The notes under the pieces: model-generated | What the model saw: only the letters and a program-made list of their open reading frames with translations | Database searches by the model: none | Told to the model about the DNA's origin: nothing | NCBI GenBank assembly: GCA_010015805.1 | Contig: ML978133.1 | Location: 1-64,000, forward strand | Source of the DNA: Rhizodiscina lignyota | Lineage: Eukaryota | Reading direction: 5' to 3' | Length of the DNA: 64,000 nucleotides | Translations under genes and position numbers: made by a program | In this document: positions 23,665 to 29,166 of the stretch, in pieces | Layout of the letters: each line of letters opens with the position of its first letter | Numbering within the stretch: position 1 is the stretch's first letter

Positions 23665-24651
23665 ATGAGCAAGATGTCCGAGTGTGGTCGTCGTCTCCGC
23701 TCAGGCCGGTGAGGCTGGAGTGCTTCCTTGGTGATGAAATATGAACTGCTGACGCGGATTCAGATCCTACGAAAGTCAGCCAAAGCGATGGACTTTTCGA
23801 ATGTCAAAGGAAAAGCAAGTCGCCTGTACTACACAAAAACCCAACAGGCTAACGGTCAGGGTACATCTAGGAAGGCCGCCAGCTTCAGACGCTTCGATTT
23901 CCTCGGCCTGCCTGCGGAAATCCGTCTCTGCATATACGGGCTCATATTCCATGTGGAGAATCAAATATGGACTTTCGGTATTATGGCCTCTGGTTTCTTT
24001 GCTCCCGGCCGATGGCACCACAGGCGGTTAGTCTGGCATAAAGTAAACTTCCTGTCATCTTGTAGACAGGTGTACAAGGAGGGCCTCGATGTCCTGTATG
24101 GACAGACTACATTTGTTTGGATTTGTGACACATCCGAGGTGATTGGCAGCAAGAGCATATCATCAGCCCATTGGGGAAGGGTTATTCAGGGACCAAAGCT
24201 TGAGCTGATCAAGAGAGTCTGCGTTCTGATCCAAATCAACCAAAGGTCAAAGGTCCAACTTCCCGACGGATCTTTTTGGGCGCCCAATATGTCGTTGGCG
24301 ATGGGCAAAGCGCTATCATTACGTAAACTCGAGATTGGACTCATTCGGAGGAAAGCCATCAATGGTACGATCATGCTACAGAATGGCTTGCCTGAGCAGA
24401 TTCCACAGAATGGTTTGTCTGAGCAGATGCTAAGGGGGCTTGACTATGACAACATAAATCCGCCAGAAGGTGAAGCCTTTGTGGATTGGCTGGATGAGTT
24501 ATTGGCCATGGTACCCGCGCACGTAGAAATAACGTGCGCAGAGAGTTCTCATTGGAGTCACAAGAGGTATAAAGCAGGGTCTATCGTTACGGACACGGAA
24601 CAGTTTCGAGGGCTGCTAAAAGAGCGACTGGAACTCCTGTCAAGGGGTTAG
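23665..24651 (+). CDS. F-box-like hypothetical protein (FLxLPAEIR family); introns 23709-23763 (GT-AG) and 23815-23870 (GC-AG)
   Basis: FDFLGLPAEIRLCIY and FLSSCRQVYKEGLDVLY motifs. The spliced N-terminus aligns with the paralog at 28294-29166. Confidence 0.7.
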
Positions 24652-26313
24652 ATTGTGTAGAATTTACGTACTTGAATCCGATCATCTGGAGAAGAGCTTA
24701 AGCAAACTCCATGGTTACTGATTTCTCGGTCAGGCGTTAGAGGCCTCTTGTTATCTAATTCGAAAGCGTCGTTTCGAAAGGAATTGTGGACGGTCTGATT
24801 CTCGCACCTGGATGAACCGGGCACGATGGCGAGGACATCGTGCGTAGTCTGATGTTCCTCTAGTTAGTGCCTTCGCTTTGTAGAGTTGCCAGGATCTAGG
24901 TATTAACGCTGAGAGTTGTTGCCGTAGCACTGGAGTATCGGACATTTTGCGGTCAATAATGCAAAGGCAAGACAAGGCAATCTGCTTGAGTCGTTCGTTC
25001 TGAGTCGTTCATTCGCTGCGATGTTGGAAATGTGTCTTCCGTGTTCCTGACATGACAGTTAAAGTAGCGCTGCTTTCATAACAGAAGCATCTTCGTTCCT
25101 TTCGGGAAACTTGGTTCGAGTATCTGGTGCAATTTCGCAGGACTGTCCTCGTTGCTTGGCACACTAGGATACAGCGGTCGCCCTGCAACAATATTTTAAC
25201 CGGAATACATTCCAATCAAGTGGACGTTTCTTCAATGCTCGTACCTGCCATATCAGAGGATCCCTCTGTTAGTGATGTATATATTGTATAGGTTGAGTCT
25301 CGGTGAAACGTTACATAGTATAGCGGCAAGGCTCCATGCTGCCGTAGAATTCGTTGCGTAAAGTCTGGCAAAGGAAAACAAGTGAATCGGCTTGAAGGTG
25401 GCTCTAAACTGGCTGCGAGGAAGTGGTTTGAGGCATGAAGAACTTGCTCTTTCATTCAATTGGATAATTAGCAATTGGGCGAGTCTAGAGAATCTCCAAT
25501 AGCAATTCTAATATCTTCTCGTCAAGCCATACAAGAAGTAGAATTGGATCGTCACTTCTAAAGGTTTGGAGCAATCGGTAACGAGAAAGGTACGTATATC
25601 GGTTCATCGTCATCATTTGACGTACGTTCTGACGTTGCCGTTTCGTTCTTAGTGAAGACGGGACGGGAGGCGCTTATCCTGGTCACGTGCCTCAGGCCAA
25701 GCGCCGCCCGCGCAGCTGGAAGACATCACCGCCCGGACGACTAGCCTCCTATTCAAGCACAAACAAGTGAAGCTGTTGCAGCCACCCCACAAGGTACCTT
25801 CCCATTCACAGAGCCTCACTTCCGGATTATGAGCATTGCATTGCATTGCCATGCTACGCCATTGACCACCCTGGACTGTGGACCCACTACGCTTACCGCG
25901 TGTTGATTCCAATCCAAATCCGACCTGCATTTCTCGAGAGCATCGACGCCATCATCATCCTGGAGACGAGGCAAAACCCTCAGAACAAGGCCACCACGCC
26001 CCCGGCCGAATCGCAATCGCAGTCCCCGCCACCCTTCTCCTCTCTCTTCCCACCCACCTCCTCCACCGACTGCGATCCGAGCAAGCTCTTCGTCACCGGC
26101 GGGCCCTCTGAAGCCCTTCCTGCATTTGCGCCTCTCCCTCCGCCTGCGCACGAGTCTTCTTCTGCTGCTGCTGCGGCTACCGTCGCGGAGACTAAGGCTG
26201 CGCTACCCCGAGACACAAAGGAAGGCGCCTCAAGTAGCAAAGACCTAGACGACGGAGAACCTCCGCCACCATACAGTGAAGGATCAATCCCTCTCGAGTC
26301 GTTTACCTACGTC

Positions 26314-27610
26314 ATGGCGACAGCCGGAGGTCCTGCGAGTATTATCACGCAGGTGCAACAGGGTGGCGGTCCGGCACTGGCAACACTGGGAGGTGAGAAA
26401 CTAGGTTGATATTTCGGTACATGAGCTTGAGCTGACATGCTTGTCCCGACAGCTGGTTCTGACGAGAACATCACACTTGAGTTGAGGTGCGTAGTAGTAG
26501 AAGAAGTATGCGAAACACAGTTATATGGCTAATAGTGGTTACAGAGGGACTCGATTCACCTTATCCCGCGATGAACTCCTCACTCTCCCCGAGTTTGTTC
26601 TCCTCTCGCTCTTTCCAAATGGACTCCTTCCAGACGGCCACATGAACTCATACCACGATGGAGATGTTTATCCAGTAGACGTTAGTAGCCCCTCAAAGGC
26701 CGCATCGCAAGAAAACCGTCCTCCAGCTGTGCAATATAAGCAACTTGCTGGAAATACGGTGGAAGCGTCGCGGCAAATCCTCTCTAATCCTGAGCTGTAC
26801 TTGTCTGACATGTATTATTACTCCGAACAGTACGATCCGCATTCGTTGCAATACATGTTGGACTTTTTCCGACATGTCGCCCAAACGATTCCGACATCTC
26901 CTCCTTCGCCCACTCAGGCCGCACAAGATGGCCAGCAAGCCACTGAGGCCGTGCCAATTGAGCCCATGGCTGGCTCTGCGCGCGACATGCTTCAAGACAG
27001 AGCCGGTATCATTGTGTTGAGAGAAGACTTGGACTTTTATGCGATCCCGCCACGGAAAGAAATCGACGCTACGGAGATGATTGAGGTTAAGCGCGCAGCT
27101 GGCAAGGCTTTGCTGCAGCAAGATGGAATCTTCAGTGGGTTGAGAAAGAGCGAGGAGCCAGGAACGACGGAACAGCATCTGATTGAGATGCTCACTGCAG
27201 GGTATCTTGATTTCCTTAAGCTGCCAGTTTTGCTAAAACTGTAACTAATTATTTGACCTCTAGTGGATTCAATCACGATGACCGATGGGGCCACCGGGCA
27301 TCCGAGCCCAACAAGGCCGTCATCTGTTCCATTGCATTGGCCAGACTACGAACGGACATCAAGGGCAACGACCTCGCTAATAGCAATGCCGTCGGAATGG
27401 CGCAGAAGCTCCTGCTTTTCTGGCGGAAGCCTGCCAGGCGATGCTGGTGGGAGGGGGTCGAACTTGAGGATGTTGAAGGCGTGGAAGGCAAACTGAAAGT
27501 CTGGATAAGGAGAGTCTGGACTCTTGAAATGGTGAGCTTGGAGAATCCCATGTCTGCTAAGATCACGCACAGCTAACGAAGTTATGCAGAGTGTCATCGG
27601 ATTGCGTTAG
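26314..27610 (+). CDS. WHI2: Whi2-like growth/stress regulator (BTB-like); introns 26393-26452, 26487-26544, 26681-26830, 27202-27263, 27532-27589; possible non-AUG extension upstream
   Basis: ASIITQVQQGG, LRGTRFTLSRDELLTLPEFVLLSLFPNG, IIVLREDLDFY, EQHLIEMLTAGGF, KLLLFWRKPARRCWW, LKVWIRRVWTLEMSVIGLR. Confidence 0.92.
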
Positions 27611-28293: not shown

Positions 28294-29166
28294 TTAGATG
28301 CCGACCGCTTGCACTTGGCCCTGTTGGCCTTCCTTCTCCTCCACCGCTTCCGTCGTCTCGCCATCTCCAGCGTGTCGCAGGTGCTCGAGCTCCGATAGTA
28401 TCTTTGTAAGGATCTCCCCCTTCAGGATAAGGCCCAGTATGAGACCCCTCTTCCACTTGTCCGAATTATGAGCAACGATTGCTATCGAAAGCGGAATGGC
28501 TCGGATGAGACTGCTGATGGCATTCATGAAAGTAGGATAGTTCTTCCAGGGTCTGCTCTCTGCGTTCCACTCCCTAAAATCGGGGCTTTGGGAATAATTG
28601 CGCACGAGAATTGAGATCGTTCTCAGGCAGGGAAACTGGTGTAGTTCGGACCACTTGGAGAAGCTTGCGCAATGAAACGTCTTGATAGCTTCCTCGGAGT
28701 CCCATTTGATGTCAAGAGTAAGTTGGAGGTGGGTTATCAGATCAAGTTTGAGCGTTTTCATTGAATGGAGTATGCCCTGAGCCATTGTGCAAATGTCGGT
28801 TCCAATCGAGCAGTTGAAGCGCGTCAGTTTGTATAGAGCGGCGGTCCCCTCGTTGTACACCTGCTTGCATGTTGCTAGGAAAAAGAATGGGGTTTGGTGA
28901 TAGCTGGCATATTTGATGCGGCCGCCTCCCCAGAGCCAACATAAGACATAGGCATCGAATAGCAGCTCGTAAATCTGAAGTCGGATCTCCGCGGGGAGAG
29001 CGAGGAATTCGACCGGCCTGAAGAGAGTTTTCTTCTGTAACCTTTTCATGCCGTCGGTGTACTTCTTCGGGTAAATCCTGCAGCGAACGTTAATTGCTAA
29101 TAACTACAGGCCACAAGGTACAACTACTTACATTCCTGAGCGCAACTGCCGACCACTTGGAGCCAT
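28294..29166 (-). CDS. F-box-like hypothetical protein (FLxLPAEIR family); intron 29131-29078
   Basis: MAPSGRQLRSGM|IYPKK...VEFLALPAEIRLQIY and FLATCKQVYNEGTAALY. GTAAGT...TTAAC...CAG intron. Confidence 0.72.

Follow-up and report, generated by a model that had tools for sequence, protein, structure and literature searches.

The WHI2 locus and the open frame ahead of its AUG

The DNA analyzed here (the window) comprises the first 64,000 nucleotides (nt) of contig ML978133.1 of Rhizodiscina lignyota (NCBI GenBank assembly GCA_010015805.1) and carries on its plus strand the gene WHI2, whose first in-frame ATG is preceded by a long open frame devoid of ATG codons. From the comparison of this region with its homologues, we consider it quite likely that the ATG-free frame encodes the N-terminal part of a long Whi2 isoform started at a near-cognate codon. 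The gene model (Table 1) predicts products of 302 amino acids from ATG 26314, 420 from CTG 25960, and 458 from TTG 25846, and the window's protein is 87.3% identical to that of a transcript-derived relative (P0002) over 409 aligned residues. Named relatives include "General stress response protein Whi2" and "WHI2-like protein P4H10.16c", and by this homology the part downstream from AUG 26314 is Whi2 as described. Pfam matched no family when run on three single-exon pieces of the window's WHI2; for WHI-2 of Neurospora crassa, one study gives BTB/POZ domains by InterProScan (PMC6987382). Whi2 of Saccharomyces cerevisiae is described as a partner of Psr1/2 and a suppressor of TORC1 at low amino acids (PMC6987382, PMC4184795, PMC8295519).

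Table 1. Features of the WHI2 region (positions are those of the window; uORF, upstream open reading frame).
Feature	Position	Strand	Description
WHI2 core gene	26314..27610	+	GT/AG borders, no internal stop, agreement with a relative's protein
WHI2 exons	(25960/26314)-26392, 26453-26486, 26545-26680, 26831-27201, 27264-27531, 27590-27610	+	Stop codon TAG 27608-27610
N-terminal extension of the predicted long Whi2 isoform	25960..26313	+	118 codons, no ATG in any frame; homology, dN/dS, third-position bias
ATC-CTG tandem near-cognate codons; CTG 25960-25962 is the proposed start	25957..25962	+	atcatcCTGgag, A at -3, G at +4
TTG, second candidate start	25846..25848	+	G at -3, C at +4; extension of 156 codons if used
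uORF1	25829..25906	+	ATG with A at -3 and A at +4, 25 codons, stop TGA 25904-25906, out of the WHI2 frame; 131 nt 5' of CTG 25960
uORF2	25851..25865	+	ATG, 4 codons, stop TGA; 109 nt 5' of CTG 25960, stop 94 nt before it
PPPFSSLF motif	26026..26049	+	Near-invariant in the family as PPPFSSLY/F; P43-S48 invariant in alignment A1
AETKAALPRDTK block	26185..26220	+	Conserved
PPPY (PPxY/PY motif)	26263..26274	+	13 codons before the AUG
Invariant AUG, Met of FTYVM	26314..26316	+	Predicted short-isoform start; G at -3, G at +4
Candidate upstream intron	25590..25652		GTACGT...CTGAC...TAG, 63 nt
Intron 3 of WHI2	26681..26830	+	150 nt, in frame, stop-free
Neighboring open frame	23713..24651	+	Pfam DUF7730 (E ~2e-7)
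Neighboring open frame	28294..29103	-	Pfam DUF7730 (E ~2e-7)

An earlier note on this DNA, written from the letters alone, had stated that the WHI2 frame is open from a TGA at 25768 to ATG 26314, that positions 25854 to 26313 hold no ATG in any frame, and that the extension reads as protein with an EPPPPYSEG string containing a PPxY motif. Listing open reading frames (ORFs) and ATGs bore out the first two statements: the TGA at 25768-25770 is followed by 181 sense codons up to ATG 26314, the plus strand between 25300 and 26420 has ATGs only at 25336, 25435, 25829, 25851, and 26314, and a scan of the 460 nt in question returned none in any frame. The EPPPPYSEG string is there as well, and homology, purifying selection, and the invariance of the PPxY motif, described below, uphold the third statement. 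The upstream ATGs at 25336 and 25435 open ORFs of no more than 3 and 10 codons, respectively.

The extension is a conserved coding sequence

Using the translated tract plus exon 1 (207 amino acids) as a query against proteins of 364 to 2000 amino acids, we matched 388 proteins at E<=0.01. A search of cluster representatives gave 187 at E<=0.001, 163 of them at E<=1e-10, and the matches mostly covered query residues 60-207. Judging by the named matches, the tract is found in five classes (Dothideomycetes, Eurotiomycetes, Lecanoromycetes, Leotiomycetes, and Sordariomycetes); its carriers include members of the Sordariales, Hypocreales, and Helotiales. Scanning metagenome contigs yielded 80 fungal loci, i.e., 81 sources with the window, whose taxon labels reflect likeness to named proteins only. 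The region of the PPxY (PY) motif was found by a first pattern in 68 of the 81 sources and in a variant form in L024 and L041, while the tract could not be examined in the remaining 11 contigs because these begin downstream of the PY region or inside exon 1. Many of the counts below refer to 53 distinct loci; they are phylogenetically non-independent, and 40 are left after thinning to <80% identity.

The ratio of nonsynonymous to synonymous substitution rates (dN/dS) in the extension has a median of 0.158 across 146 locus pairs (range 0.053-1.71, with the maximum from a near-identical pair), and in 14 related pairs the first, second, and third codon positions account for 119, 100, and 363 mismatches within the 300 nt that follow the start. 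Frame conservation and a dN/dS below 1 across fungal WHI2 upstream regions, which the earlier note had named as things to look for, are hence both found. In the window itself, approximately positions 26010-26313 are 76% identical to the relatives and keep all motifs including the PPxY without any stop or frameshift. By this comparative evidence, the tract is real coding sequence and not leader. One might suspect that the frame is open by chance in a 5' leader rich in GC and poor in ATGs, since the other two frames of the tract are also fairly open (81 and 113 codons) and codon shuffles of the window are often free of ATGs; protein conservation across classes, a dN/dS of 0.16, and third-position bias refute it, however, and bring its probability close to nil.

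Conservation begins at approximately residue 60-80 of the 207-residue query, so the full 181 codons are unlikely to be all coding, and the start is probably located downstream of the segment IRPAFLESIDA. The conserved part comprises the PPPFSSLY/F motif, the short motif AETKAALP.DTK, and the PPxY motif. When distinct segments were collected by an independent anchor, 58 of 59 contained PPxY (PPPY in 45, PPAY in 13) and the lone miss was a spurious anchor match; a second [PL]PxY is present in 11 of the 53 extensions, and the window has one PPPY plus PPPF and LPAF. AlphaFold2 applied to a relative's long form with a 17-row alignment gave a poor mean pLDDT (predicted local distance difference test) of 44 and no secondary structure before residue 167, which agrees, though weakly, with a disordered extension.

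PY-motif adaptors that dock on the WW domains of Nedd4/Rsp5 ubiquitin ligases are exemplified by the ARTs, Bul1/2, Bsd2, and Ndfip. The extension resembles such ligands in having an invariant PPxY (PPPY or PPAY) within an apparently unstructured segment. PPxY motifs are the known ligands of Nedd4/Rsp5 WW domains (see also PMC8509885 and PMC2824488), and by analogy the motif would be a putative docking site for an Rsp5/HulA-type ligase. No paper linking Whi2 to Rsp5 through a PY motif was found in the literature searched.

In the mRNA-like contig L004, a run of T within the extension is one base longer than in L002 and L051, which puts the contig out of frame; faulty assembly or sequencing is the probable cause.

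Relatives share a near-cognate codon where the frame begins

Upstream of PPPFSS, most lineages have in common a motif A-(I/V)-T-L-S-x-T-(R/Q). In an unbiased MAFFT alignment, the column of the motif leucine holds TTG in 35 of 50 rows and in a Kozak-like context, so that the shared near-cognate codon for which the earlier note had suggested to align relatives does exist. The other rows have ACC (3), CTC (3), CTT (2), TTA (2), CTA (2), and ATC, AAC, and ATA (one each), and most of them are misaligned lineages with a well-placed near-cognate codon of their own (e.g., gccaaaTTGgat, ttcaacGTGgat, gacacgGTGgat, and gcagtcCTGgat). Two related loci even differ right at the start, with gtcaaaCTG in one and gtcaaaGTG in the other. 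After lineage-wise assignment, the start codon of the 53 loci is TTG in 42, GTG in 7, and CTG in 4, with C at -4 in 46 and A or G at -3 in 44 and 9, respectively; since 20 of the 53 assignments were made by hand, picking a near-cognate codon, the "53 of 53" for purine and near-cognate codon is partly circular.

Three conserved leucine positions that served as controls use CTT, CTC, CTA, and TTA, and have TTG or CTG in 0/51, 1/53, and 0/52 motif-matching rows (of which 51, 40, and 45 actually have leucine). None of the 51 KAAL leucines uses either codon. TTG accounts for 41 of the 422 other leucine codons in the tract (~10%). The reading frame changes its behavior around the same site: in the best-aligned pairs (L003/L014, L001/L005, and L034/L053), the nearest frame-breaking indel, as placed by the aligner, lies 29, 16, and 34 nt 5' of the TTG. 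Among 14 pairs altogether, an indel of this kind is found less than 120 nt upstream in nine and only at more than 100 nt in one, while the other four lack it. Downstream of the TTG, the gaps in close pairs are multiples of three. With frame-breaking indels upstream and in-frame gaps downstream, the reading frame therefore begins at or within a few codons of the TTG. No hairpin that could boost a near-cognate start was found in the 60 nt after it (median z-score 0.15 across the 53 loci).

Leotiomycete-like loci (e.g., L006, L028, L065, L071, L073, and L076) have an ACG directly before the TTG (atcACGTTGtca), a tandem near-cognate pair that resembles the ATC-CTG of the window.

No AUG is available to start the long form

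Between the upstream stop and the conserved Met, the 53 distinct loci with such a stop, window excluded, contain only 2 in-frame ATGs in 27,420 nt (in L032 and L037). Three contigs from which the whole protein can be read without introns, and which are hence mRNA-like, reach 216 (L001), 126 (L006), and 373 nt (L009) 5' of the TTG and have an in-frame stop 75, 120, and 45 nt ahead of it, respectively, with no in-frame ATG.

These contigs bear directly on the idea that the long form starts at an AUG in an unrecognized upstream exon and that its non-AUG appearance is an artifact of gene models. Such an exon is suggested by the plausible candidate intron upstream in the window and by the many public models that start with a Met a few residues 5' of the start motif. 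It is disfavored because the mRNA-like contigs show a stop and no in-frame ATG ahead of the TTG. Transcript-derived ORFs, moreover, give "MSRTQ" precisely at the site that reads "LSRTQ" in genomic models, which we take to reflect an ORF caller starting at a leucine codon, and the window's ATGs at 25336 and 25435 open only the very short frames mentioned above. We therefore regard a hidden AUG exon as highly unlikely and return to initiation at a near-cognate codon.

The candidate intron is well formed, lies ~300 nt 5' of the proposed start within a 390-nt ATG-free stretch (25438-25828), and may be an intron in the 5' untranslated region of WHI2. A short intron joining ATG 25829 to the WHI2 frame was also considered and rejected, as splice sites found by eye gave only spans too short for introns. 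The Hortaea werneckii model P0078 has a Met where related Hortaea/Capnodiales-type sequences have Val (GTG in L010, L043, and L057); one copy may have exchanged GTG for ATG, or the reverse, as its start codon, a difference seen in a protein model only.

The start codon in the window

Which codon would start the long form in the window is less clear-cut than in most relatives. CTG 25960 and the adjacent ATC 25957 have the best in-frame scores of a position weight matrix (PWM) within 25500-26320, and the "AIIILETRQ" around them fits the family motif A-h-T-L-S-x-T-R/Q. The frame of the nearest relative (L021) is closed 16 codons 5' of a TTG whose aligned position is only a few codons away from CTG 25960, so this lineage must start there. 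Seen from CTG 25960, the window's two nearest upstream ATGs fall at -131 and -109, the position of uORFs in the family, with no ATG from there down to the AUG. The second candidate, TTG 25846, keeps the spacing of relatives with long N-termini; it ranks second since it scores low in the PWM, is followed by no LSxT(R/Q) motif, and has ATGs close by at -17 and +5. On balance, sequence comparison somewhat favors CTG 25960 (including ATC 25957) as the start, TTG 25846 is a possible though considerably weaker candidate, and other or multiple codons take up what probability remains.

Two placements proposed by MAFFT, i.e., CTT 25819 as the start motif of the window and the pairing of RPAF with RPPY, were rejected after lineage-wise comparison.

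Several proposals of the earlier note can be revised on these grounds. It had named ATT 25861 and a GTG at 25899 as near-cognate starts; the ATT is in frame and the GTG actually occupies 25900-25902, but neither has a homologous counterpart or other comparative backing, the family start being TTG. It had also put the extension at up to 181 codons, which holds for the open frame and not for its coding part: because CTG 25960 (or TTG 25846) fits best, the latter would be about 118 codons and 156 at most. Leaky scanning that yields a long and a short Whi2, its central idea, fits the layout with its ATG depletion and a downstream AUG flanked by G(-3) and G(+4), though not with the start codons that it named.

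The weakness of TTG 25846 also raises the question whether this species still makes the extension at all or only the AUG form, with the open frame as a recent relic. The first ~60 residues after this ancestral-looking TTG lack the family motifs DGSS and VTPL, and the ATGs at -17 and +5 again speak for decay. Yet the last ~300 nt before the AUG preserve the identity, motifs, PPxY, and uninterrupted frame described above, and CTG 25960 offers an optimal context together with family-typical uORF spacing. A relic thus appears distinctly unlikely compared with a long form that is still made in the window's species.

The downstream AUG and the short form

In nearly all loci, the frame has its first Met at FTYVM. 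Its AUG has G at -3 in 40 of the 53 loci (C in 11, A in 2) and G at +4 in 51, and the way to it is remarkably free of alternatives: the 23,115 nt that separate the proposed start from the AUG contain no in-frame ATG and only 4 out of frame, compared to 95 +/- 8 out-of-frame ATGs expected from codon shuffles (minimum 69 in 1000 shuffles; the shuffle run took TTG 25846 as the window's start, for which the observed count is 5). The trinucleotides CAT, GAT, AGT, and GTA are each present 139-293 times in the same tract. AUG depletion across relatives, likewise anticipated by the earlier note, is thus evident with 4 against ~95 expected. Per length, ATG density is 1.0/kb in the homologous tract and 16 and 21/kb in the 400-nt flanks, a contrast that gives significance to the ATG-free tract of the window. 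Altogether, a weak start that is followed by a tract without AUG and then by an in-frame AUG in good context points to the classic layout of a gene with two isoforms.

Published work on N. crassa speaks to the short form. According to two studies, its WHI-2 has 297-298 amino acids (PMC6987382, PMC4184795). A copy with an internal HA tag, expressed from the native promoter, is reported to rescue the deletion and to migrate "very close" to the 32.2 kDa predicted (PMC4184795). We therefore take the short AUG-started form to be real.

The same observations bear on another explanation, according to which only the long non-AUG protein matters, the Met of FTYVM is merely internal, and the ATG-free tract serves to prevent wasteful or decay-triggering out-of-frame starts. 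Depletion of ATGs in all frames is equally expected if only the long form matters, and the Met of FTYVM lies within a conserved block (SPLESFTYVMAAAGG). Nevertheless, ribosomes that miss the weak start would use the first AUG, which is in frame and in good context, and WHI-2 expressed in N. crassa from its own promoter is reported to have nearly the size of the AUG form and complements the deletion (PMC4184795). We consider a long form without a functional short one unlikely and hold that both isoforms would be made.

Taken together, we infer initiation at a near-cognate codon, the production of both isoforms, and CTG 25960 as the window's start. Several findings weigh against this interpretation. 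On its own, the ATG-free tract of the window is weak evidence, as codon shuffles of its 460 nt have zero ATG in 49% of cases and first-order Markov simulations in 3%. The hand-made share of start assignments, 20 of 53, counts here too. The window's best PWM scores are low (-2.5 and -2.7 in a training range of -7.1 to 39), and its start rests on weak, partly ambiguous, and mutually disagreeing alignments; the alignment of the start motif is non-unique because a similar "IISRAQSPPP" precedes the first PPxY in Hypocreales/Helotiales. The in-frame ATGs of L032 and L037 lie ~100 codons 5' of the start motif (L033 is identical to L032), and L041 is a real exception with a short frame and an in-frame ATG 9 codons before the PPxY. 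Due to L041 and the far-upstream ATGs of L032, L033, and L037, AUG-started variants may exist, and L041 may come from a lineage that exchanged the long non-AUG N-terminus for a short one with an AUG start and the PY motif. The text accompanying the N. crassa Western blot reports only a band of ~32 kDa and no larger one (PMC4184795). Finally, the depletion of out-of-frame AUGs can also be explained as avoidance of initiation that is wasteful or triggers nonsense-mediated decay.

Upstream ORFs and a possible mechanism of isoform control

The leader ahead of the near-cognate start has a layout of its own. ATG density 5' of the start is 0/kb at -30 to -1, 6-7/kb at -90 to -31, 13-17/kb at -150 to -91, 5-9/kb at -240 to -151, and 14-32/kb farther out. 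In 30 of 49 loci, and still in 21 of 38 after thinning to <80% identity, the nearest upstream ATG falls between -140 and -87; such upstream AUGs are also present in mRNA-like contigs. The uORFs of the family have a median of 5.5 codons and end ~90 nt before the start; their context is mostly weak, with T or C at -3 in 37 of 48 and C at +4 in 29 of 48. Both uORFs of the window (Table 1), which the earlier note had overlooked, conform to these patterns: uORF1 by its position, which matches the family cluster of upstream AUGs at -87 to -150, and uORF2 with its "gcc ATG c" and 4 codons, typical of the family's short uORFs. No conservation of uORF peptides was found within the family. A short uORF in weak context ~90-140 nt upstream, present in most loci, thus appears by its position to be part of the conserved layout.

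Given these elements, expression of WHI2 could work as follows. In the family, the long form would start at a UUG that is deeply conserved, with GUG or CUG in its place in some lineages, and that stands in a CA(C/A)N context; in the window, the start would most likely be CUG 25960. Because near-cognate starts are inefficient, most scanning ribosomes should bypass it; they would then cross a tract that is AUG-free in all three frames and initiate at AUG 26314. The output of this AUG would be the short Whi2 of ~302 amino acids, the form known from the literature, while the long form (~420 amino acids) would add a probably disordered segment with PPPFSSLY/F, AETKAALP.DTK, and the invariant PPxY.

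Going further, though with more doubt than confidence, one may ask whether the succession of uORF, near-cognate codon ~90 nt after the uORF stop, ~440-nt AUG-free tract, and AUG sets the ratio of long to short form. The balance of Whi2 forms would then shift with ternary-complex availability (Gcn2/CPC-3) or with start-codon stringency (eIF1/eIF5), so that a factor restraining TORC1 when amino acids are scarce would have its own output readjusted by the amino acid-sensing branch of translation. The long form, for its part, would recruit an Rsp5/HulA-type ligase or be directed to one.

Comparison with known non-AUG starts and significance

Yeast has dual-isoform genes with non-AUG upstream starts such as ALA1 (ACG), GRS1 (UUG), and HFA1 (AUU). 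WHI2 would share with them a near-cognate start 5' of and in frame with the AUG and a longer isoform made by leaky scanning. The extensions of ALA1, GRS1, and HFA1 are mitochondrial presequences of ~20-120 residues, whereas that of WHI2 is a conserved Pro/Ser-rich segment with a PPxY motif and without presequence character.

The closest precedent in filamentous fungi is cpc-1 of N. crassa and its Pezizomycotina homologues, for which conserved N-terminal extensions from near-cognate codons have been described by Ivanov et al. (2017, mBio, PMC5487733). As with WHI2, there is a long stop-free in-frame tract with conserved amino acids 5' of the main AUG, a leader with uORFs, near-cognate codons conserved across Pezizomycotina in A(-3) contexts, and a gene linked to the amino acid response. 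By the same paper, cpc-1 differs in having several conserved near-cognate codons (ACG, AUU, and CUG), two well-studied uORFs in optimal context, and experimental support, whereas WHI2 has one dominant codon (UUG), a short weak-context uORF, and a PY motif, and is known in this respect from the comparisons made here. The cpc-1 paper mentions whi-2 nowhere in its text (0 occurrences; PMC5487733). Like uORF control of GCN4 and cpc-1, the layout of WHI2 combines a short uORF at a conserved distance (stop ~90 nt before the start) with two starts ~440 nt apart, a formal likeness of layout; unlike there, it is usually a single uORF in weak context whose peptide is not conserved.

The published descriptions of fungal Whi2 consulted here treat the protein as AUG-started and mention no upstream coding tract, non-AUG start, or PY motif (PMC6987382, PMC4184795, PMC8295519), and the literature searched, which left out most subscription papers, contains no description of a non-AUG start, N-terminal extension, or PY motif of Whi2. 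This kind of feature is already known from cpc-1, ALA1, GRS1, and HFA1, and the WHI2 instance appears to be new and well supported by comparative analysis.

Fungal Whi2 has been studied as a regulator of TORC1, MAP-kinase (mitogen-activated protein kinase) signaling, cell fusion, and plant infection, with the studies in filamentous fungi consulted here treating it as an AUG-started protein of ~300 residues. If our interpretation is right, a long PY-bearing form has been kept since the ancestor of the five classes listed above (Dothideomycetes to Sordariomycetes), and constructs for tagging, complementation, or two-hybrid assays that were made from the annotated ORF miss part of the protein, while N-terminal tags placed at the AUG would disrupt the long form. 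With a UUG start that is clear and deeply conserved, WHI2 would also join the non-AUG genes of filamentous fungi, few of which are known with good support.

Gene models, intron 3, and neighboring genes

Proteins of at least 700 amino acids account for 70 of 120 among the matches listed, a share that is not a rate because the search took only proteins of 364-2000 amino acids. We read these long proteins as chimeras with the upstream neighbor gene. The fused neighbors include an ABC-F protein (Pleosporales), alcohol dehydrogenase (Zymoseptoria and Hortaea), and G-patch, GMC oxidoreductase, and other proteins (Sordariomycetes). That gene predictors need an ATG may explain why WHI2 is fused to its neighbor in such models. 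Whi2-like proteins also go under names that apparently spread to them from chimeric gene models, e.g., "ABC transporter", "Dipeptidyl-peptidase III", "Peroxin 20", "ATP-binding cassette, regulator of translational elongation", and "G patch domain-containing protein 1".

Retention of intron 3, which is in frame and stop-free (Table 1), would add ~50 residues to Whi2. The homologous intron is read through in the public models P0008, P0014, P0062, and P0069 and spliced in transcript-derived ORFs.

WHI2 is flanked by two open frames in opposite orientation (Table 1) which both match Pfam DUF7730 and have in common an N-terminal "F..LPAEIRL.IY.L.F" string. By these sequence features, the frames bracketing WHI2 look like a pair of diverged paralogues.

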